DNA of 64,000 nt from Dehalococcoidia bacterium. Its GTDB lineage: Bacteria > Chloroflexota > Dehalococcoidia > UBA6926. Positions 21,962 through 32,884 of this stretch are shown piece after piece (position 1 is the stretch's first letter; every line of letters begins with the position of its first letter). A program made the translations under genes and the position numbers. The DNA lies in assembly GCA_965206275.1 (NCBI GenBank), contig OZ242203.1:904474-968473 (forward strand), given 5' to 3'. The notes under the pieces are model-generated. The model did not search any database, was not told where the DNA came from, and saw only the letters and a program-made list of their open reading frames with translations.

Positions 21962-22068
21962 TATCGGAATGACATGGGGGACGGCGCTGCGCGCCGTACT
22001 GGATTCCCGCTTTCGCGGGAATGACGAGGGGTTCACCCTTCGACAGGCTCAGGGTGAACGGGGGCTCA
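21962..22068. repeat. composite repeat (partial B + E + A + C)
   Basis: ggaatgacatggggg; ggcgctgcgcgccgtactgg; attcccgctttcgcgggaatgacga; ggttcacccttcgacaggctcagggtgaacggggg. Confidence 0.85.
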
Positions 22069-23178
22069 GTCGAAGGTGGTGAGGTTGGTGACGGTTTCAG
22101 GGGTGAGGCGGTGGAGGACTTTGGTGACGAGGCGGACAGCATTGGCGAAATCGTCGCGGTGGATGATGCCGTTGTGGCTGTGGAGATAGCGGGTGGGGAC
22201 GGCAATGTTGATGGAGGGCGCGCCGGAGCCTGATTTCTGCATCTCCGCGCCGTCTTCGCCGTAGCCGCTGAGGACGTTGAACTGGAGCGGCATCTCGAGT
22301 TCTGCGGCGGTGTCGACAAAGAAATCGCGGAGGCGGAGGTTGGGGAGCATGGAGCTGTCATGGAGGAAGACCGTCGGACCTTTGCCGAGTTCCTCCTACG
22401 CTTCGTCCTTAGTGATGCCGGGGTAGTCGCCCGCGACGCCGGACTCAAGGTTGATGCCGATGTCGGGCATGACGTGGAAGGAGCTTGTGTGCGCGCCGCG
22501 GAGGCCAACCTCTTCCTGGACGGTGGCGACGAGGTAGACGGTTGCGGGGAGCGAATCGGCGGATTCGCGGATGGCGCGAGCGACCTCAATGAGGCCGGCA
22601 ACCCCTGCCCTGTCGTCCCATGCCTTGCCGAGGTAGAGTTCACCGCCGGCCATCTCCTGAAACCGGCTGTCCGGCGCAACGGGATCGCCGGGGCGGATGC
22701 CGAGGCGTTGCTCGGCGTCCTCCTTGTTGGCCGCGCCGACGTCGATGAACATGTTCTCTTTCTTGAACACCTGCGAGCGGGCTTCAGGCTGCATAACGTG
22801 GACAGTCTTGATACCGGTGAGGCCGGGTATGGGGCCGTTGCGGGTCATGACGACCCATCGCTGGTTTATCAAGGCTTGGTCAAGCCAGCCGCCGAGGTTC
22901 TGGATGGTCAGGAATCCCTCACTGGTGATCTGGCGGACCATGAGGCCGACTTCGTCCATGTGGGCGGAGAGCATGATGCGGGGGACGCCATCGGTCTCGT
23001 CGCCAATGCGGGCGATGAGGGAGCCGATGCCGTCGGTCTCTATGTCATCGGCGAGGGGAGTGAGTTCGCGTCGGACGATGGCGCGGACGGGGCCTTCGTG
23101 GCCGGTGGGGCCGAAGGCGTTGGAGAGCTCTTCGAGGAGGGTGCGTTGGCGGGCGTGGGTTTCGGGGGATGTGGTCAT
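22066..23178 (-). pseudogene. M42 family metallopeptidase (FrvX/YsdC-like) interrupted by a single in-frame TAG at 22395-22397. Two ORF fragments in the same frame: 22396-23178 and 22066-22350.
   Basis: The N fragment has GHEGPVRAIV...IMLSAHMDEVGLMV. The C fragment has SINIAVPTRYLHSHNG. Translation across the TAG gives contiguous M42 homology (...PGITKDEA*EELGKGPTVFLHD...). Confidence 0.6.
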
Positions 23179-23256: not shown

Positions 23257-25038
23257 ATGTCACATGAGGAACACCAGTCAGTCAGTGCGAACGGCGGCGC
23301 GCTTGAGGAGCGTTACACGGGCGAGAATGACACGCTCATCCGGATGCGGCATTCCGCGGCGCACATGATGGCGGAGGCGGTGCTGTCCATGTTCCCAGAG
23401 GCGAAGCTGGGAATCGGGCCGCCCATCGAGGACGGGTTCTATTACGACTTTCTGCTGCCGCGGACACTTTCGACGGATGATCTGCCGGAGATCGAGGCGC
23501 GGATGCGGGAGAGCGCAAAGGCGGCCGCGCCGTTTGTCGTGGGTGAGATGACGCGTGAGGAGGGTTTACAGCGTTTCGCGGACCAGCCTTTCAAGGTGGA
23601 GATCATCGATAGCCTGACGGACGAGACGGTATCGACATACTCGCATCGGGATTTCACGGACTTGTGCCAAGGGCCTCATGCGGAGTCGACGGACAAGACG
23701 GGGGCGTTCACGCTGACGCGGGTGGCGGGGGCGTACTGGCGCGGCGATGAGAGCAATCCGCAGCTGCAGCGCATCTATGGGGCGCTGTTTGAGACGCAGG
23801 AGGAGCTGGACGCGCACCTGGAGCGGCTGGCTGAGGCGGAGCGACGTGACCATCGGCGGCTGGGGCGCGAGCTTGATCTGTTCTTCTTCGATCCCATCGC
23901 GCCGGCGAGCCCGTTCTTCCTGCCGAAGGGGGCGACGGTCTATAACCTGATGGTGGATTTCATCCGCGAGCTTTATGACCGGTACGGGTACCAGGAGGTC
24001 ATCACGCCGCAAATCTTTTTGACCGACCTGTGGAAGCAGTCGGGGCATTACGACAATTACCTGGAGAACATGTACCTGACGCAGTCGGATGAGATCGAGT
24101 ACGGGGTCAAGCCGATGAACTGCCCCGGGCACTGCGTGATGTACGCCTCTCAACTGCATTCGTATCGAGCATTGCCGCTGCGGTACGCGGACTTTGGGCG
24201 GCTGCATCGGAACGAGCGGTCCGGGGTGACGCACGGGCTGACGCGGGTACGGAGTTTTTCCCAAGACGACGCGCATATCTTCTGCCGCATGGACCAGGTG
24301 CAGGACGAGTTTTCGTCGTTGATCCGGATGATGCGCGACGTGTACTCGGCGTTTGGGCTGAATGAGCCGCGGTACACGCTGTCGCTTCGGCCTGAGAAAC
24401 GGGTGGGGAGCGATGAGACGTGGGACCGGGCGGAGGACGCGCTGCGGGAGGCGCTGACCATCGCAGGGGCGGACTTTGAGGAGATTCCGAATGAGGGCGC
24501 GTTCTACGGGCCGAAGATTGACCTGTTCTCACAGGACGCGCTGCGGCGGGAGTGGCAGTTGAGCACGTTCCAGCTGGACTTCAATCTGCCGGAGCGGTTC
24601 GACCTGGAATACGTGACGGAGGACAACACGCGGGAGCGGCCGGTGATGATTCACCGCGCGATACTCGGCTCGCTGGAGCGGTTTTTTGGGGTTTTATTAG
24701 AGCACAACGCGGGGGCGTTCCCGGTGTGGCTCGCGCCGGTGCAGGCGACGATCATCCCCATCGCGGACCGGCACATCCCCTATGCGGAGCAGGTGCAGGA
24801 GCAGCTGCATGACGCGGGGCTGCGCGTTGAGATTGATGACCGGAATGAGCGGATGAACGCGAAGATCCGTGAGGCGCAGACTCGGCACGTGCCGTACATG
24901 CTGGTGGTCGGCGACCGCGAGGCGGAGTCGGGCGCGGTGGCGGTGCGTCGTCGTGAGGGGAGCGAGGACCTGGGGGCGATGGCGGTTGCGGAGTTTGTGG
25001 GGCGGGTGTTGAGGGAGGTTGAGGCGGGGAGGGGGTGA
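23257..25038 (+). CDS. thrS: threonine--tRNA ligase ThrS
   Basis: Class II aaRS motifs and a ThrRS catalytic core (NCPGHCVMY Zn site, RVRSFSQDDAHIF). AAGGAG SD 11 nt upstream. Confidence 0.93.
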   Translation: MSHEEHQSVSANGGALEERYTGENDTLIRMRHSAAHMMAEAVLSMFPEAKLGIGPPIEDGFYYDFLLPRTLSTDDLPEIEARMRESAKAAAPFVVGEMTREEGLQRFADQPFKVEIIDSLTDETVSTYSHRDFTDLCQGPHAESTDKTGAFTLTRVAGAYWRGDESNPQLQRIYGALFETQEELDAHLERLAEAERRDHRRLGRELDLFFFDPIAPASPFFLPKGATVYNLMVDFIRELYDRYGYQEVITPQIFLTDLWKQSGHYDNYLENMYLTQSDEIEYGVKPMNCPGHCVMYASQLHSYRALPLRYADFGRLHRNERSGVTHGLTRVRSFSQDDAHIFCRMDQVQDEFSSLIRMMRDVYSAFGLNEPRYTLSLRPEKRVGSDETWDRAEDALREALTIAGADFEEIPNEGAFYGPKIDLFSQDALRREWQLSTFQLDFNLPERFDLEYVTEDNTRERPVMIHRAILGSLERFFGVLLEHNAGAFPVWLAPVQATIIPIADRHIPYAEQVQEQLHDAGLRVEIDDRNERMNAKIREAQTRHVPYMLVVGDREAESGAVAVRRREGSEDLGAMAVAEFVGRVLREVEAGRG

Positions 25039-25123
25039 GGAAAGCACCCTGCTCATCACCTTCAGCATCTCCAGTGAGCGCTCCTCTCTTTATATCGGCT
25101 GCATTCAACATTCTTAGGGAATA

Positions 25124-25951
25124 ATGTCAATGCGCAGCGCCATTCTTCTCCGTGATTGGGTCCGTAGCTATTTGGGGAGCTACGTTCGCATAATGCTGCG
25201 GTTGTCTGTGCCAACATTCTGCGCTGGTGTTTTGGCGGTGGTATTCGCCAACGATCTGACAAACGACTTTTTTAGGTACTTAAGATGGAGCACACCTAGT
25301 CTGACAACTACGTACTTCATAGCAGTTCACGGAATCCTGCTTGGCATCGTTGCAATTGGTATCCTTGCAGCGCCATTTGCATTCGCAGCGGCAGTTTTCC
25401 AAGCACGGGGTACGGATTGGCGAGAACGAACACTACTGGGTGTCTGGACCGGCATCGCTTCAGCATCTATGTTGTCGCCATGGATCGAGCTTCAGACCAA
25501 GAATGCCAAGGCCGCACGACTTAGATTAGGTATCAGGGCCTTCAATCGCACCTTGCTGCTGCTCTGGCTATTGGGCCCAATCGCATTGTGGCTGATATGG
25601 ACTGCGGAGCAAATATTCACCTTCACGTTTGTAAGTGGTGCCGAGTTCCTTGGGAAACCGCATGGCGAGTCTGGCTTTGCCTTTGATGATTGGGATGGTC
25701 GCTTCAGTTATTTGATTAACGGAGTCGTTTCAGTGGCTTACTCATCAGCATTGTTTGTCTTGTCCCTCACAAATTGGAGATATGCACTGCGTACAGGCGT
25801 GAGGTCAAGCGAGGAAGTACTCGACCCATCTGTTTGGCAAGATGTGCGCACAAAATGTTGGCCGCTTACTCCTCTGGCGATATTGATTGTCAGTACTCCA
25901 TTTTTGATTGCACTTTACGTCCTTTTGGGATGGATTGGTGTCGAATTGTGA
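25124..25951 (+). CDS. hypothetical multi-pass membrane protein in a lower-GC patch (about 55% vs about 63%)
   Basis: 5-6 predicted TM helices; no recognisable family. Compositional shift seen in sequence. Confidence 0.5.
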   Translation: MSMRSAILLRDWVRSYLGSYVRIMLRLSVPTFCAGVLAVVFANDLTNDFFRYLRWSTPSLTTTYFIAVHGILLGIVAIGILAAPFAFAAAVFQARGTDWRERTLLGVWTGIASASMLSPWIELQTKNAKAARLRLGIRAFNRTLLLLWLLGPIALWLIWTAEQIFTFTFVSGAEFLGKPHGESGFAFDDWDGRFSYLINGVVSVAYSSALFVLSLTNWRYALRTGVRSSEEVLDPSVWQDVRTKCWPLTPLAILIVSTPFLIALYVLLGWIGVEL

Positions 25952-25982
25952 ACCTGGCTTCCTTACAAGGGTGAACGGGGGT

Positions 25983-26095
25983 TTGCTGTGGCCCTTGCGG
26001 GCCACGGGATGGATTCCGGCCTTCGCCGGAATGACGATTGGGCTAGGTCCCCGTTCGGGAGCCCCCTTCGACTGCGCTCAGGGCGAACGGGGGTG
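25983..26095. repeat. composite repeat (module D gtggcccttgcgggccac + A' attccggccttcgccggaatgacg + C')
   Basis: Modules as stated. Its twin lies at 33565-33620. Confidence 0.8.
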
Positions 26096-26100
26096 GTGGC

Positions 26101-26487
26101 CTAGACTCCGCGGATGTCTGTGTGGGGGAAGTCTTGGCCTTTGTAGAGGAGGGGTTCTCCGGTCATGTCTGCGAGGGCGTAGGCGAGGCAGTCGCCGAGG
26201 TTGAGGGCGGCAGGGTGGTTGCCCTTGCCGAATTGTCGCCAAGCGCGTCGGGCGGCGGTGACCTGTTCAGGCGTTACGGGGACGATCTCTATGGACTCGC
26301 GCTGGAGGAATGCATCGAATTCCTCGCCGCCTGCGGGGCCCAGTCGGCTTTCCAAAACGACGGCGGATTCAAGGGCATTGAACGCGGACATTCGGAGACC
26401 GTCCACGCGGAACAGCGCTTCTTCGAAATAGGGGCCGTCAGTCTCTCTCAGCAGGATGGCGCAGATGGCAGATGAATCGATGATCAC
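26101..26487 (-). CDS. vapC: type II toxin VapC (PIN-domain ribonuclease)
   Basis: A GTG start overlaps the vapB stop (GTGA). The N-terminal IIDSSA is a PIN acidic-residue pattern; about 128 aa. Confidence 0.8.
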   Translation of the reverse strand: MIIDSSAICAILLRETDGPYFEEALFRVDGLRMSAFNALESAVVLESRLGPAGGEEFDAFLQRESIEIVPVTPEQVTAARRAWRQFGKGNHPAALNLGDCLAYALADMTGEPLLYKGQDFPHTDIRGV

Positions 26488-26777
26488 TTGGGTTCGCCGT
26501 GCTCGCCATAGAGGGAGTCGAGAAGCTCCTGTGAGGAGGGGGCGGGGCGCAGATGCGGCGCAAGCCGGCGATGCATGTCGGCAATTTCCTTGCGTCGTTC
26601 CGCTTTCCAGCGCAGCCAACCTTCAAGGGAGCGGTCTACTTCCGCGAGCCGTTCTCGTTCCCGTTCCAAGCGCTCCTGGAGGGCGATGGTGATGGCCTGC
26701 GTTTTGTTTTCGTTGGTCAGGGCCGCGAGTTCTTCGGCGAGTCGGTTGGTTTCGGGGTTCTTGATGTTCAGGCTCAT
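26484..26777 (-). CDS. vapB: type II antitoxin VapB (ribbon-helix-helix-like)
   Basis: 97-aa charged protein immediately upstream of the PIN gene, with a 4-nt overlap. Confidence 0.7.
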   Translation of the reverse strand: MSLNIKNPETNRLAEELAALTNENKTQAITIALQERLERERERLAEVDRSLEGWLRWKAERRKEIADMHRRLAPHLRPAPSSQELLDSLYGEHGEPK

Positions 26778-26851
26778 TGTGTACCTCAGGGTAGACGGTT
26801 TGTTATGTGTCTACCCTACTGGTTATGGGGGGCGGGGGCAAGGGGGTTTCG

Positions 26852-27118
26852 GCTGGGTTCACCCTTCGACGGGCTCAGGGTGAACGGGGGTGGTGGGACT
26901 GCCAATACGTTCTTTAGATTCTTCGCTACGCTCAGAATGACATCGGGGTTGTGGCGGCGCTGTGCGCCGCACTGGATTCCCGCCCCGTATCGGAGTACGG
27001 GGCATGCTTTCGCGGGAATGACGATGGGACTTCTATCCTTGACCCGTTGGGGTGGGGAGCCTATCGTACTCGCAGATTGGGGAGGGTGTTCTGGATTCCC
27101 GCTTTCGCGGGAATGACG
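26852..27118. repeat. repeat cluster: module C, then B+E+A with a 23-nt nested palindromic insertion inside hairpin A (26984-27006), then another A
   Basis: attcccgc|cccgtatcggagtacggggcatg|ctttcgcgggaat. Second copy at 27093-27115. Confidence 0.85.
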
Positions 27119-27147
27119 AATGCGCCTAGTCGGTGGGGAGTGTGGTT

Positions 27148-29565
27148 ATGACTAATGGTGGGGCGGGATCGGCGGCTGGCGGCGGGGATTCGGCGCTGGG
27201 GCATTTGCGGGTTGTGGAGATTGGGGAGATTCCCGCGGCGTATTGCGCGGGGTATCTGGCCGGGCTCGGCGCGGACGTGGTCAAGGTTGAGCCGCCGGGG
27301 GGCGATCCTAACCGGATGCATGCGCCGTTCGCGGGCGATATTGCCGACCCGGAGCGCGGTATTCCTTTTCTTAATGCGAATCTGAATCGTCGCAGCATCG
27401 TGCTGGACGTTGAGGATGCGGGCGGCAAGGAGACGCTTGAGAAGCTCATCGAGCGGGCGGATATCTTTGTCGAGTGCACGCCGCCTGGATACCTGGCCTC
27501 TCTGGGTGTTGATGATGAGCGGCTGGAGGCGTTGAATTCCGGGCTTGTGACGGTTTCGATGACGCCGTTTGGGCAGTCGGGGCCGCACAGCGCGTTCGCG
27601 GCTAACGAGGCGGTGATCTCCGCCATGTCCGGCGTGATGATGAGCCAGGGGGATGATGAGCGCTCACCGGTCGTGCTGCCGTGCCAGATCGGCGCGCAGC
27701 TGGCCGCGGCGCTTGGCGCGTATTTGGGAGTCAACGGTGTGCGGCATCGACGGGCGACGGGTCGGGGCCAGCGCATCGATCTCTCGTTGCAGGAGGCGCT
27801 GACATTCGCGACAGTCGGGACGATTGCGCGGTACAGTCAGCGGAGCGAGCTGGTGACGCGGCAGGGACCACGCGGCGGACCCGCGAATATCTATCGAACA
27901 AAGGACGACAAGTACGTCCAGATTGCGGTCTTTATGACCGGGCACTGGCGTGTTCTGGCCCGGCAGTGGATGGAGGACGCGGTGTTGTCCGGCGACGACT
28001 GGGATTCGTCGCAGTACCGGACGGACAACGAGGACCTGGCGCAGATCCTTATACAGTCGTTCGTCGAGCAGTTCGACCGCGATGAGTTCGTGGAGGAGGG
28101 GCAGAAGCGCGGGCTGGCAGTCTGCCCCGTCAACACGTTCGAGGATTTCGTAACGGACGAGCATATGCGGTCACGGGGGTGGTTCCAGACAGTGACGCAT
28201 CCCGTCGTTGGCGAGTACGAGACGCCGGGGCAGCCTTTCATCATGTCAGCGACGCCGTGGAACCAGACGCGCCCTGCCCCGCTGCTGGACCAGCATCGGG
28301 ATGAGGTGCTGGCCGAGATTGAATCGGTTCAGCCGCGTCGTGAGACGTACCCTGCGCCGACGAACGGGAAAGCATCGGACGACGCGCTGCTGGAGGGCAT
28401 CCGCGTGGCGGACATCACGCGGGCGTTCGCGGGGCCGATCGGGACGATGTTCCTCGGCTTCTACGGGGCGGAGGTCATCAAGGTGGAGTCCGAGAGCCTT
28501 GAGGCGAATCGCGAGCCGACGCGTCCGCTGTTCCCCGACATGAACCGGAACAAGATCAGCTGCACACTCGATCTGCGGTCGGACGGCGGCAAGGACCTGT
28601 TCCGCCAAATGGTCAAGGAAAGTGACGTTGTCGTTGACAACTTCAGCGCGACGGTCATGAAGCGACTTGGGCTGGGCTACGACGACCTGACGAAGATCAA
28701 CCCGGGCATCATCCAGATCGGGATGCCGGGGATGGGGTCCGAGGGGCCGCTGAACAACTGGGTGACGTACGGGAACAACCTGCAGGCGGTGACGGGGCTG
28801 TCGCTGCTGTGGGGGCACCCGGACTCGCCGATGCAGAACCATGCGAAGGGGGTCATCCCGGATTACGTGGGCGCTGCGTTCGTGGCGCTATCGACGGCGG
28901 CGGCGCTGGAATACCGAGACGTGACGGGTCGCGGTCAGTTCATCGAGATTGCTCAGGTGGACGGCCAGGGGTCGATGATGGGCCCGGCCATCCTGGACTA
29001 CACGATCAACAAGAACATCTGGGGCAGCGTGGGCTATGACGAGCCGCTGGCGGCCCATTACGCGCCCTACGGGGCGTATGCGTGCCTTTACCAGGACACA
29101 TGGATCGTCATCGCGTGCGAGACGGACGAGCAGTGGCGGGCGCTGGCTCAGGCGATGGGCGCGCCGCACTGGGCGGACGATCCCCGTTTCGCAGACACAG
29201 CGGGGCGGCGTGAGAACCGCGACGAGATCGACCACGAGATAAGCGAGTGGGCCAAGGCGTTCACGTCGCACCAGCTTCTGCACATGCTGCAGAAGGTGGG
29301 CGTGCCTGCGGGCGTGGCGATGAACAGTGAGGACCTGTACCACGATCCGCACTTGCGGGAGCGGGGACACATCGTACAGTCGACGCACTCGACGTGGGGG
29401 ACGCTGTCGCATCACGGGCTGCCTGCGATACCGTCGCTGTCCAAGGCGACGGCGGCGAATCGCGCGCCATGGATCGGTGAGGATAATGAGTACGTGTACA
29501 GGTCCGTGCTTGGGCTTTCAGAGGATGAGATCAGAGAGGGCACGGAGAGTGGGGTGCTGAGGTAG
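27148..29565 (+). CDS. fused tandem double CoA-transferase family III protein (two CaiB/BaiF domains, ~805 aa)
   Basis: Domain 1 signature LRVVEIGEIPAAYCAGYLAGLGADVVKVEPPGG. Domain 2 signature LEGIRVADITRAFAGPIGTMFLGFYGAEVIKVES. ATG at 27148 with GGGGAG 7 nt upstream. Confidence 0.8.
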   Translation: MTNGGAGSAAGGGDSALGHLRVVEIGEIPAAYCAGYLAGLGADVVKVEPPGGDPNRMHAPFAGDIADPERGIPFLNANLNRRSIVLDVEDAGGKETLEKLIERADIFVECTPPGYLASLGVDDERLEALNSGLVTVSMTPFGQSGPHSAFAANEAVISAMSGVMMSQGDDERSPVVLPCQIGAQLAAALGAYLGVNGVRHRRATGRGQRIDLSLQEALTFATVGTIARYSQRSELVTRQGPRGGPANIYRTKDDKYVQIAVFMTGHWRVLARQWMEDAVLSGDDWDSSQYRTDNEDLAQILIQSFVEQFDRDEFVEEGQKRGLAVCPVNTFEDFVTDEHMRSRGWFQTVTHPVVGEYETPGQPFIMSATPWNQTRPAPLLDQHRDEVLAEIESVQPRRETYPAPTNGKASDDALLEGIRVADITRAFAGPIGTMFLGFYGAEVIKVESESLEANREPTRPLFPDMNRNKISCTLDLRSDGGKDLFRQMVKESDVVVDNFSATVMKRLGLGYDDLTKINPGIIQIGMPGMGSEGPLNNWVTYGNNLQAVTGLSLLWGHPDSPMQNHAKGVIPDYVGAAFVALSTAAALEYRDVTGRGQFIEIAQVDGQGSMMGPAILDYTINKNIWGSVGYDEPLAAHYAPYGAYACLYQDTWIVIACETDEQWRALAQAMGAPHWADDPRFADTAGRRENRDEIDHEISEWAKAFTSHQLLHMLQKVGVPAGVAMNSEDLYHDPHLRERGHIVQSTHSTWGTLSHHGLPAIPSLSKATAANRAPWIGEDNEYVYRSVLGLSEDEIREGTESGVLR

Positions 29566-29696
29566 GTATTCGTTCTTGACGTGGTAAATAGGCGGATTGT
29601 AGAGTACGTGCTTGAACAATAGGGATAAAAGGCACTTACAATAGGGATGAGAGCGGCCTGCGATACGGCTGAGAAACGCATAGCGAGGGAGTAGAC

Positions 29697-30296
29697 ATAC
29701 CGAGAGATTATCGCGTCAACCAACGAATCACCGTGCCGGAGGTCCTTGTGGTGACCGACACGGGGGAACGGGTTGGAGTGATGCATACGGCAGACGCCAT
29801 TCAGATGGCGCTGGATCGGGGCCTTGACCTGGTTGAGGTGGCCCCGGGGGCGCAACCACCTGTTTGCCGCATTCTTGACTACGGCCGCTATCGCTATGAG
29901 CAGTCCAAGAAGGAGCGGGAGCTTCGCAAGGGACAGCACACGCAGGAACTCGGCGAGGTGCGGCTCCGCCCCAAGATCGGTCAGCACGATATCGACTTCA
30001 AGACGCGGACGGTTCGCAAGCTGATTGACGGCGGGGACAAGGTCAAGGTTTCGGTTATTTTCAGAGGCCGTGAGGCGACCCACCCCGAGTTGGCAATCAA
30101 TCTGTTGAAGAAGGTATTGGACCAAGTAGAGGACATCGCGGGCATCGACACCGCGCCGCAGTTGGAGGGACGGGGCATGAGCATGATCCTGGCCCCCCTG
30201 AAGCGCAAGAACGCGGCATCATCGAAGCAGGCAGTTGAGGCTCCTGCCGAGGAGAAGGCCGAAGAAGCAGCAGCGGCCGCCGGTTCGCCAGAGTAA
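29697..30296 (+). CDS. infC: translation initiation factor IF-3 with non-canonical AUA start
   Basis: IF3 N-terminal (RVNQRITVPEVLVV..GE..GV) and C-terminal domains present. In-frame stop at 29670-29672. The only start upstream of the conserved N-terminus is ATA at 29697, with AGGGAG 5 nt upstream. Confidence 0.85.
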   Translation: MPRDYRVNQRITVPEVLVVTDTGERVGVMHTADAIQMALDRGLDLVEVAPGAQPPVCRILDYGRYRYEQSKKERELRKGQHTQELGEVRLRPKIGQHDIDFKTRTVRKLIDGGDKVKVSVIFRGREATHPELAINLLKKVLDQVEDIAGIDTAPQLEGRGMSMILAPLKRKNAASSKQAVEAPAEEKAEEAAAAAGSPE

Positions 30297-30346: not shown

Positions 30347-30553
30347 ATGGCAAAGTACAAACTCAAGACGCACAAGGGCACGCAGAAGCGGATCGGCATG
30401 ACCGGTTCCGGCAAGCTGACGAAGCGCAAGGGGCACCAGAGCCACCTGCGGCGTCGCAAGCCGAAGGACGTCAAGCGCCTGTACGGCGATGAGATGCCGT
30501 TGAGCCCGGCAGATCGGCGTCGCGTGCAGCGGCTGCTGCCGTACGGGCCATAA
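30347..30553 (+). CDS. rpmI: 50S ribosomal protein L35
   Basis: MAKYKLKTHKGTQKRI... is the bL35 signature. Confidence 0.95.
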   Translation: MAKYKLKTHKGTQKRIGMTGSGKLTKRKGHQSHLRRRKPKDVKRLYGDEMPLSPADRRRVQRLLPYGP

Positions 30554-30595: not shown

Positions 30596-30970
30596 ATGAC
30601 CCGAATCAAGGGCGGCCCGAGAACGCGACGCCGCCACAAGGAAGTCATCAACTTGATGAAGGGGCAATGGGGCTCCCGGCACAAGCTGTTTCGCCGGGCG
30701 CAGGAGTCCCTGCTGCACTCCTGGCAGTACGCTTATGAGCACCGGCGTGAGCGCAAGGGCGATTTCCGTCGGTTGTGGATCACGCGAATCAACGCGGCGG
30801 CGCGTCAGAACGACATCACGTACGGCAACCTGATCCACGGGCTGAAGCTGGCGAACGTGGCCGTCGATCGCAAGATGTTGGCGGATTTGGCGGTGCGAGA
30901 CCCGCAGGCGTTTGCGCGGATCGCGGAGGCGGCGAAAGAGGCGCTGGCGGCGGAGACGGCTGCGGCGTAG
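30596..30970 (+). CDS. rplT: 50S ribosomal protein L20
   Basis: MTRIKGGPRTRRRHKEV... is the bL20 signature. Confidence 0.95.
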   Translation: MTRIKGGPRTRRRHKEVINLMKGQWGSRHKLFRRAQESLLHSWQYAYEHRRERKGDFRRLWITRINAAARQNDITYGNLIHGLKLANVAVDRKMLADLAVRDPQAFARIAEAAKEALAAETAAA

Positions 30971-31839: not shown

Positions 31840-32760
31840 TTACCCCTTAAACACGTTTTCGTTGTGCCAGTTGAGCGCAGCTCGGTTTGGTTGCTCATCT
31901 TTGTATGGCGGGATGTAGATTGGCTTGGCGTTCAGCGCGTAATAGTTACGCCCGTTCCCGAATTCCTTCCGAATGCTCTCACTCACCTTGAATGTGTAAT
32001 CAGGCGTCACCGTCACATAACCATCATCAAAAAGCTTATGGATATCGCGACGAAGCAGGATGCCATTGCTGATCTCATGTTGCCCGCCTAGGCGATATGG
32101 GTGAATGTGTGCCGCCTCCAGAGCGGGGAATGTGCGCTCGCCGGTAATAGCGCACTTGCGGCCATAGGTGTCGGCAACGAGTACCCGAAAACCGCCTTGC
32201 CCCAATCGCGGCTCAACAAGCTGTGGCGATCCATAGCGAGCCCTCTCTTCCGCAAGCAGCGCTCCTGCTTCCTCCACAGCCGCACGGGCCAGACGTTCCT
32301 GAAAGGCTTCCCTCAGAGCACGTCCGATGCCGATTTCAGAATCGTATCTCTTTCCCGAAACAATGCTCTTGGACCAATCCTCAGGTGGATCCATCCAGTC
32401 AGACTCATCGAAGAAGAATGGCTGTAAGAGAATCCGGCAAATGATCTCATGGCGTGGGCCTTGCCAACCATGCTTGGTCATCCTTGCAAGAAACTCTTCT
32501 GCGGATAGCGCTCCGTTGTTTTCTTCAAAAGCCTCCCAAGCGTAGAAAAGCGGAAGCTTGGTTGAATGCCGGAAGTATGCTCCGCCCACTATCTTGTTTA
32601 TGGGCGCATGCAGTTTGAACAGGAATAAGGAGCCTCGCTCGAGAGAACCAATGTTGTCCTTGGCCGACGGCGACCAGAAGTTGACCTCACTCGGCTTGAG
32701 CTCTCTGAGCGTCTGAAACCAATCATTGTCTGTGACCGCGACGACAAGGTTTATCGCCAT
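31840..32760 (-). CDS. PUA-like (EVE/YTH-like) domain + HNH_2 endonuclease; putative modification-dependent (type IV-like) restriction enzyme
   Basis: C-terminal CAITGERTFPALEAAHIHPY...NGILLRRDIHKLFDDGYVTV is the HNH_2 motif. The N-terminal VNFWSPSA...GSLFLFKLH...IVGGAYF resembles a PUA-like fold. Start set at the ATG (MAINLVV) with GGAG 5 nt upstream. Confidence 0.6.
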   Translation of the reverse strand: MAINLVVAVTDNDWFQTLRELKPSEVNFWSPSAKDNIGSLERGSLFLFKLHAPINKIVGGAYFRHSTKLPLFYAWEAFEENNGALSAEEFLARMTKHGWQGPRHEIICRILLQPFFFDESDWMDPPEDWSKSIVSGKRYDSEIGIGRALREAFQERLARAAVEEAGALLAEERARYGSPQLVEPRLGQGGFRVLVADTYGRKCAITGERTFPALEAAHIHPYRLGGQHEISNGILLRRDIHKLFDDGYVTVTPDYTFKVSESIRKEFGNGRNYYALNAKPIYIPPYKDEQPNRAALNWHNENVFKG

Positions 32761-32884
32761 GTCTGCTCCAGCCATGAGTGGCATTGGGTTAACTGGGCGA
32801 CTACCTCCGAGGATAGCAGATGCGATGAGCTGCGGCTTGCGGCGGATTGAGCGGAGCAGCGGCTACAGAGTTGGGTTGGGTATT

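Follow-up and report, generated by a model that had tools for sequence, protein, structure and literature searches.

A small accessory gene hotspot in the thrS-infC interval of a Dehalococcoidia clade

The question of the thrS-infC gap

The genes for threonyl-tRNA synthetase (ThrRS; thrS) and initiation factor 3 (IF3; infC) are usually separated by 70-340 nt, but in the Dehalococcoidia bacterium considered here the spacing is 4.66 kb. What occupies this interval, and how was it assembled? We addressed the question in a 64,000-nt stretch of contig OZ242203.1 (positions 904,474 to 968,473; hereafter the window, to which all coordinates refer) and in its relatives. In a survey of 80 loci recovered with ThrRS, one genome per species, 77 were informative; in 50 of these, infC followed thrS within less than 400 nt, and a handful had 1-2.5 kb between the genes. 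The two genes are indeed normally adjacent, as a preliminary description of this DNA had assumed, and a tight pair is interrupted here. Its view of the whole gap as a single integrated 4.6-kb islet holds in one respect, since part of the gap is accessory, compositionally foreign DNA, but the interval is not one unit. Indeed, most of it is not an island, because a coenzyme A (CoA)-transferase gene is found there in 10/10 related loci that reach this far, a vapBC toxin-antitoxin pair is found in 7/12 lineages, and only 25.0-26.0 kb has a low guanine-cytosine (GC) content. Only positions 25039-26100 are specific to this genome. The gap contains a small accessory/defence-gene hotspot between core genes, a type of feature that is already known, and the locus was probably built at three times, with the CoA-transferase, vapBC and a cargo slot as separate layers, and not as one islet. 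Its parts are the following.

23257-25038, plus strand: thrS, threonyl-tRNA synthetase (Pfam tRNA-synt_2b, HGTP_anticodon, tRNA_SAD), left core flank of the slot
25039-26100 (about 1.06 kb): variable cargo slot, bounded by the stop codons of thrS and vapC
25124-25951, plus strand: orphan membrane protein, 275 aa (from the map of open reading frames, ORFs)
about 25966-26099, plus strand: repeat cluster A, three hairpin units of a REP-like intergenic family
26101-26487, minus strand: vapC, PIN-domain toxin of the VapC30 type, 128 aa (Pfam PIN, E = 4e-12)
26484-26777, minus strand: vapB, antitoxin of the Rv0623/VapB30 type, 97 aa (Pfam PSK_trans_fac, E = 9e-19)
26788-26817: candidate VapB operator, inverted repeat AGGGTAGAC-N12-GTCTACCCT, directly upstream of vapB
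about 26853-27030, plus strand: repeat cluster B, of the same dispersed family as cluster A
27039-27067, plus strand: promoter-like site of the CoA-transferase gene, TTGACC-17-TATCGT (consensus scan)
27093-27118, plus strand: single REP-like hairpin in the 5' leader of the CoA-transferase gene (z = -2.8)
27148-29565, plus strand: fused double family-III CoA-transferase, 805 aa, with two CoA_transf_3 domains
29576-29605, plus strand: promoter-like site of infC, TTGACG-18-TAGAGT (consensus scan)
29616-29659, plus strand: insertion of 44 nt in the infC leader, two 22-nt tandem units
29697-30296, plus strand: infC (IF3); probable start codon AUA, Shine-Dalgarno sequence GAGGGAG
30347-30553, plus strand: rpmI (Pfam Ribosomal_L35p)
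30596-30970, plus strand: rplT (Pfam Ribosomal_L20)

The ORF map and domain scans recovered, at or near the expected positions, every element that the preliminary description had named. As proposed there, thrS ends at 25038, and 29697 is the best call for the infC start. The membrane protein gene is of lower GC (0.498) and its product multi-pass, with about six predicted helices; the four bases shared by the vapB stop and the vapC start read directly as GTGA; and the CoA-transferase is a fused double enzyme of 805 aa when counted from ATG 27148.

The comparison set comprised 11 related lineages with ThrRS 92-98% identical to that of the window, thus 12 lineages with the window included. These are the species representatives L001 and L003 and nine contigs (L117-L122 and L126-L128) of the same 90% ThrRS cluster, which has 37 members, about 12 of them inspected; promoter-like sites and leaders were compared in eight aligned loci. 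A further locus, L081, is arranged like L001 and comes from a metagenome of the sponge Petrosia ficiformis (PMC5099237). At least some members of the clade are thus associated with sponges, whose metagenomes have been reported to be enriched in defence genes (PMC5099237).

A variable slot directly after thrS

At the DNA level, the window is collinear with L001 and L003 from a position near 15.5 kb as far as the stop codon of thrS (25039/25040). Collinearity breaks there, resumes at 27035 and runs through the CoA-transferase gene, infC, rpmI and rplT. The left flank is thrS in 12/12 lineages, and the right flank is the CoA-transferase gene followed by infC in 11/11 that reach it, the window included; where vapBC is missing, the slot extends to the promoter-like site of the CoA-transferase gene. 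Between these flanks, the 12 lineages carry eight different slot contents.

L001, L119, L128 and L121: 630-aa GmrSD_N protein, plus strand, split in L121
L118: 571-aa GmrSD_N protein, unrelated to the 630-aa type
L003 and L120: GmrSD N+C protein, minus strand, with a 68-aa ORF
L117: 502-aa HNH-domain protein
L122: PDDEXK_4 protein and a 117-aa ORF
L126: HhH-GPD protein and a 163-aa ORF
L127: several small ORFs, some of them retropepsin-like
window: orphan membrane protein

Even pairs with 98% identical ThrRS differ in their slot, namely the window and L122, and L120 and L126. The slot has 50-56% GC in all lineages. In the relatives, its genes match the Pfam families GmrSD_N/C, HNH and PDDEXK_4 and the PADLOC models HEC-05, HEC-06, PDC-M55C, PDC-S26 and type IV restriction; GmrSD-type genes are present in 7/12 lineages, and PDDEXK_4 (PDC-S26) and HNH proteins in others. 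The locus thus has the marks of a hotspot: fixed core flanks, a content that varies among close relatives and an enrichment in defence families, the last as family matches only.

The 630-aa GmrSD_N copies (L001, L119, L128 and the split one of L121) are mutually 64-69% identical. Since they occur in different thrS subgroups, this gene was probably the ancestral occupant of the slot, and the membrane gene of the window would have replaced an earlier occupant instead of entering an empty site. No relics of a displaced gene were detected in the window slot, where tblastx and blastn searches against the slots of the relatives matched only repeat units. Past the thrS stop codon, no motif is shared among nine loci and the sequences diverge at once. 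The last 60 nt of thrS are 53-90% identical among relatives (53-82% in most pairs), compared with mostly 85-97% for the rest of the gene. This drop fits recombination junctions located inside the thrS 3' end.

The CoA-transferase gene is fixed in the clade

The largest part of the interval (2.4 of 4.6 kb) is the CoA-transferase gene, directly upstream of infC in all ten relatives reaching that far. Counted from GTG 27133, where the ORF opens, the protein has 810 aa; counted from ATG 27148, which follows a conserved Shine-Dalgarno sequence, it has 805. Six relatives were compared, and their proteins are 91-96% identical to that of the window. The promoter-like site TTGACC-17-TATCGT is conserved in 8/8 aligned loci, and the block that aligns in all eight starts there; between it and the conserved Shine-Dalgarno sequence and ATG lies a repeat unit (27093-27118) that differs among relatives. 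From these comparisons, the CoA-transferase gene is fixed in the clade and behaves as a core gene, not as recent cargo. Homologs that are 50-64% identical occur on other metagenome contigs without adjoining thrS or infC, hence the placement is specific to this clade. Full-length fused homologs of about 30% identity are common in metagenome contigs.

The protein contains two full-length CoA_transf_3 domains (combined E = 1e-176). Its N-terminal half matches chain A of PDB entry 9FN0 (E = 5e-47) and its C-terminal half chain B (2e-56), the two subunits of benzylsuccinate CoA-transferase; Frc and YfdE are further PDB matches. Since the halves match two different subunits, the protein looks like a family-III heterodimer whose subunits have been joined in a single chain. 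None of the NCBIfam equivalog cut-offs for named substrate-specific enzymes is reached; the score for succinyl-CoA:mesaconate CoA-transferase, for instance, is 354.9 against a cut-off of 700.

vapBC persists while its neighbour changes

The vapBC pair occupies the same position in seven of the 12 lineages. L127 has vapB alone, L003, L122 and L128 have neither gene, and L121 ends before the site. VapC matches chain A of PDB entry 4XGQ (VapC30; E = 5e-34) and VapB matches chain B (E = 2e-7). In the alignment with VapC30, D4, the LES/LET glutamate, GDC and QDF/EDF are conserved; we take D4, the LES glutamate, GDC and QDF to be the acidic active-site positions of the window toxin. The palindrome at 26788-26817 forms a hairpin with z = -3.7 relative to shuffled sequences. 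It is conserved in the aligned vapBC-bearing loci that reach the site and absent in L003 and L122, which have no vapBC; it probably serves as the operator for VapB within the promoter region of vapBC.

Compared with relatives in which thrS and CoA-transferase identity is 91-93%, the VapC protein of the window is only 62-68% identical; within a subgroup with 97-98% identical CoA-transferase, VapC identity is 72-91%. The pair thus seems to be a long-term resident whose sequence changes, or is replaced by exchange, at a much higher rate than the flanks, and some lineages have lost it. We also considered vapBC as part of the cargo unit and rejected this option, given that vapBC persists while its neighbour changes. 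For the same reason, and contrary to the preliminary description, vapBC did not come in together with the cargo as its stabiliser: the pair and its palindrome keep their place in 7/12 lineages next to differing genes.

Proposed assembly of the locus in three layers

Three layers would best account for these data. The first would go back to the common ancestor of this Dehalococcoidia clade, where the CoA-transferase gene with its promoter-like site became fixed between the two genes thrS and infC. The second would be the VapBC30-type pair with its operator-like palindrome, divergent from the CoA-transferase gene, long resident and lost in some lineages. In the third, the ancestral GmrSD_N occupant of the slot would have been repeatedly replaced by other single genes, mostly of defence-associated nuclease families; the present occupant in this genome would be an orphan membrane protein from a lower-GC donor. 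Turnover would proceed by recombination of incoming DNA through the flanks, with thrS on the left and vapBC or the CoA-transferase gene on the right. The slot is without mobility genes of its own, and exchange could take place via the conserved flanks, as is thought for defence hotspots flanked by core genes. The low identity of the thrS 3' end and the divergence of vapBC would both fit homologous exchange through the flanks, with relaxed constraint as the alternative reading.

Several points weigh against this scheme. No recombination event was observed directly, and none of the 12 lineages has an empty slot. The drop in identity at the thrS 3' end could reflect an unconstrained C-terminal tail. 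The promoter-like sites, though conserved, are consensus matches. The defence role of the slot genes in the relatives is predicted from family matches only, several of them to candidate (PDC, HEC) models. Most of the sequences are metagenome-assembled, and some are low-coverage long-read contigs with split genes (L120, L121 and L126). Finally, we infer the direction of the first layer, in which the CoA-transferase gene entered an adjacent thrS-infC pair; distant Dehalococcoidia have the two genes adjacent, but in L002, the nearest outgroup (63% thrS identity), the 10 kb that follow thrS contain no infC.

This last point leads to the alternative that no insertion occurred at all: thrS and infC would have been brought near each other, or have always been apart, by rearrangement, the CoA-transferase gene and vapBC would be ancestral neighbours, and only the slot would be dynamic. 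Besides the situation in L002, the absence of infC downstream of thrS in 20 of the 77 informative loci, many of them from Chloroflexota, and the fully host-like composition of the CoA-transferase gene speak for it. On the other hand, infC lies about 100-210 nt from thrS in six loci labelled Dehalococcoidia (L022, L039, L055, L063, L065 and L080) and in two labelled Chloroflexota (L018 and L023), the CoA-transferase homologs of 50-64% identity are found in other contexts, and the order and orientation from thrS to infC match the canonical operon. We therefore regard this alternative as unlikely and retain the three-layer scheme.

Dispersed repeats and the limits of the foreign DNA

The two repeat clusters reported in the preliminary description are present, but they are not island ends. 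They consist of hairpin units such as GGATTCCCGC-TTTC-GCGGGAATGACG and CCCTTCGAC...GCTCAGGGYGAACGG, and their motifs are found again in intergenic regions of the window from 10.9 to 33.8 kb. Two of these motifs have 12 and 7 copies in the window, where 0.1 and 0.02 are expected. A given site may hold a unit in one relative and lack it in another; for example, a unit lies directly past the CoA-transferase stop codon in five relatives and not in the window. Because copies occur at many intergenic sites and are present or absent among relatives, the clusters are members of a dispersed REP-like family and not the ends of an island.

TTCGCSGGAATGAC (12 copies) and GCTCAGGRYGAACGG (7 copies) occur on the plus strand without exception (19 sites, 10984-33734), and the GC skew of this strand is positive over the profiled stretch, 18-36 kb. 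Such a strict strand bias suggests a mechanism tied to the direction of replication or to a single-strand transposase.

Could the repeats themselves drive the turnover? Recombination between units of the same orientation, or a repeat-associated transposase, would then delete or capture segments such as the vapBC cassette. Two type-2 units (26057-26099 and 26855-26896; 42-43 nt) indeed stand in direct orientation at the junctions between cargo and vapC and between vapB and the CoA-transferase gene; since they bracket vapBC, they could promote its deletion, and lineages without vapBC exist (L003, L122 and L128). The single-strand placement of all 19 copies and the presence or absence of units at the same sites among relatives also agree with this idea, as does the repeat-cluster sequence shared by the window and L122, which is 91-97% identical and differently ordered (a 71-nt stretch of cluster A is 97% identical to part of the L122 slot cluster). 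However, the cargo gene adjoins vapC without any repeat in L001 and L119, no unit is found at the thrS stop junction in the loci examined, and repeats occupy many intergenic sites that do not vary. This explanation is thus slightly weaker still than the absence of insertion, and we hold it improbable as the main cause of a turnover that the three-layer scheme ascribes to exchange through the flanks.

The composition of the DNA and the search for island features delimit the foreign part. GC of about 0.50 is confined to about 25.0-26.0 kb, with 0.60-0.65 on either side. The GC content at third codon positions (GC3) is 0.507 in the membrane ORF, 0.71-0.72 in vapBC, 0.815 in the CoA-transferase gene and 0.83-0.85 in thrS, rpmI and rplT. 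The GC and codon comparison proposed in the preliminary description therefore singles out the membrane gene, with its low GC and the worst codon fit, and not the remainder of the gap. Similarly, the synteny of related genomes, which that description had itself named as decisive, shows most of the interval to be a shared arrangement. No repeats bracket the 25.06-29.65 kb region as a whole: a search for direct or inverted repeats flanking the 4.6-kb interval gave only short pairs at chance level and dispersed repeat units. No integrase or recombinase is encoded by the genes of 25039-29696 (no recombinase domain in Pfam), and the whole 64-kb window has no tRNA or transfer-messenger RNA (tmRNA) gene that could serve as an integration site. 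The interval therefore lacks the marks of a site-specific genomic island, namely an integrase, att-type direct repeats or a tRNA, and absence as a whole unit together with a distinct composition.

A single recent 4.6-kb islet of membrane gene, vapBC and CoA-transferase gene, with vapBC as stabilising module, might explain a gap so unusual against the 70-340 nt norm and the toxin-antitoxin pair and low-GC gene inside it, but it is very improbable and largely refuted by the synteny of the relatives already, as the CoA-transferase gene stands at the same position in 10/10 of those reaching it, with core-like composition and its own conserved promoter-like site, vapBC stays put while the adjoining cargo changes, low GC is limited to about 25.0-26.0 kb, and flanking repeats, integrase and tRNA are lacking. 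The greater part of the apparent insertion consists of fixed, host-like DNA, and the strain-specific portion amounts to no more than about 1 kb, which corrects a plausible but wrong reading of the locus.

An orphan membrane protein in the slot

The slot occupant in the window, with GC 0.498 and the worst codon fit to core genes, is proposed to derive from a lower-GC donor. A hydropathy scan of the protein revealed at least four strongly hydrophobic stretches, and about six transmembrane helices can be read from the sequence. Among 5.8 billion protein clusters the protein matched only itself, and among 1.84 billion representatives it had three matches, including two remote homologs with 41% and 30% identity. 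The closer one has 278 aa and is 41% identical over the full length; since the protein and both homologs share 40 invariant positions, the ORF is a real gene. Both homologs lie on contigs of 1-2 kb without informative context, the contig of the closer one having about 52% GC. The small ORFs upstream of the two homologs have mutually dissimilar translations and thus give no shared partner gene. No match was obtained in Pfam, NCBIfam, PADLOC or PHROGs, or by tblastn against 50,697 phage records. An AlphaFold2 model built from the three-sequence alignment is all-helical and unreliable, with a mean predicted local distance difference test (pLDDT) score of 46.5.

The position of the gene suggests a function in defence, without demonstrating it, because in the relatives the slot holds genes resembling type IV restriction and other nucleases. 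It is conceivable, though doubtful, that the protein is a new single-gene anti-phage defence, for example a membrane-disrupting effector of abortive infection. The slot after thrS provides a short list of candidate defence genes, the orphan membrane protein included. If the defence role were true, the slot would be useful for finding new defence genes in uncultured sponge-associated Chloroflexota through guilt by association.

The start and expression of infC

A mechanical ORF list starts infC at GTG 29733, but the frame is open from 29694. Position 14 of the NCBIfam infC profile corresponds to residue 2 of the GTG ORF, so that the start would lie 12 codons further upstream, at ATA 29697. In addition, the string GAGGGAGTAGACATACCGAGAGATTA, which comprises the Shine-Dalgarno sequence and the ATA, is conserved with at most one substitution in 8/8 aligned loci. 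On the basis of the open frame, the profile position and this conserved string, infC most likely starts at the conserved AUA codon 29697.

In Escherichia coli, infC has its own promoters, and an own promoter is thus unsurprising here; moreover, a non-canonical start codon of the AUU class underlies the autoregulation of IF3. The suggestion of the preliminary description that infC needs its own promoter is reasonable. The site TTGACG-18-TAGAGT is nearly invariant in 8/8 aligned loci, and the sequence directly upstream of it varies, with REP units present or absent; infC, rpmI and rplT are most likely transcribed from this promoter-like site just after the CoA-transferase gene. Only the window and L122, its closest relative, have the 44-nt leader insertion (ACAATAGGGATRARAG...), which gives rise to a second promoter-like match, TGAACA-18-TACAAT, at 29613-29642. 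The products of rpmI and rplT are 99-100% identical to those of the relatives.

No intrinsic terminator was found after thrS or after the CoA-transferase gene, and the overall number of terminator-like structures equals that expected from shuffled sequences. The infC leader gives no sign of RNA structure (folding z = -0.2). No known RNA element matched at Rfam gathering thresholds in the whole window, and a permissive Rfam scan of 24.9-31.2 kb found no L20 leader RNA, only a single epsC match at chance level (E = 0.75). With its conserved infC promoter-like site and AUA start, the locus is well suited to the study of IF3 autoregulation in non-model bacteria.

Other observations in the window and its relatives

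Upstream of thrS, the gene of an M42 glutamyl aminopeptidase (22066-23178, minus strand) contains an in-frame TAG at 22396-22398, where five relatives carry CAG or CAA (Gln). One C-to-T substitution accounts for the stop codon, which points to a very recent pseudogene or to an assembly error. Between this gene and thrS, L119, L120, L126 and L127 have a DUF433 gene followed by a second small ORF, with a weak DUF5615 match in three of the four; the two are taken to be a toxin-antitoxin-like pair. The window has only a 78-nt gap there, hence both sides of thrS are variable in the clade.

About 0.9 kb downstream of rplT, an HNH_2 endonuclease gene (31840-32784, minus strand; GC 0.53) with PADLOC 'HNH' matches is 53% identical to its L001 copy, and other relatives have different genes at this place. 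It may mark a second small variable site beyond infC-rpmI-rplT.

A giant ORF of 7,492 aa (41503-63981, minus strand) contains at least 12 tandem units of about 1.1 kb, mutually 60-88% identical, and a stretch with 12/24-nt periodicity at 41.9-42.3 kb. It may encode a huge repetitive surface protein.

In L120 (13354-15751), L121 (9862-11761) and L126 (13447-15167), the CoA-transferase or GmrSD gene is split into two ORFs. These splits are probably sequencing frameshifts and not true pseudogenes.

Comparison with known systems

The gene order of the locus is that of the textbook E. coli cluster thrS-infC-rpmI-rplT, in which infC likewise has its own promoters and a non-canonical start, here probably AUA. 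The clusters differ in the 4.66 kb that part thrS from infC here and in the L20-binding leader RNA, which Rfam did not detect in the present locus.

The CoA-transferase resembles heterodimeric family-III enzymes such as benzylsuccinate CoA-transferase BbsEF (9FN0), in that its halves best match different subunits and both are complete CoA_transf_3 domains. Unlike in BbsEF, the subunits are fused into one 805-aa chain, which scores below all NCBIfam equivalog cut-offs.

The toxin-antitoxin pair is close to VapBC30 of Mycobacterium tuberculosis (Rv0623/Rv0624; 4XGQ): both proteins match the two chains of the same complex, the antitoxin gene comes first, the genes overlap by 4 nt, the PIN acidic residues are conserved and a palindrome lies upstream. 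On the other hand, the C-terminal half of the window antitoxin is not alignable, and activity is predicted from sequence here.

As for the repeats, they share with REP/BIME elements their short GC-rich hairpins, clustered intergenic location, dispersal and presence or absence at the same site among relatives; they differ in that the family matches no Rfam model and that 19/19 copies in the window are on one strand.

Finally, defence hotspots marked by core genes and without an obvious mobile element have been described as cDHS1 and cDHS2 in Pseudomonas aeruginosa (PMC10250203), and hotspots of defence islands are known in E. coli (PMC10121019). Compared with these, the Dehalococcoidia slot holds one or two genes (1.8-3.4 kb) instead of tens of kilobases, lies inside a translation-gene cluster with no tRNA or tmRNA at its edge, and is seen across species-level lineages of uncultured Dehalococcoidia, not among strains of one species; its occupant in the window matches no known defence family. 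What it has in common with them is a fixed position at core genes, a variable content rich in defence families, low GC and the lack of obvious mobile-element machinery. The locus is an example, from uncultured Dehalococcoidia, of a very small hotspot between core genes, and it leaves current understanding unchanged.

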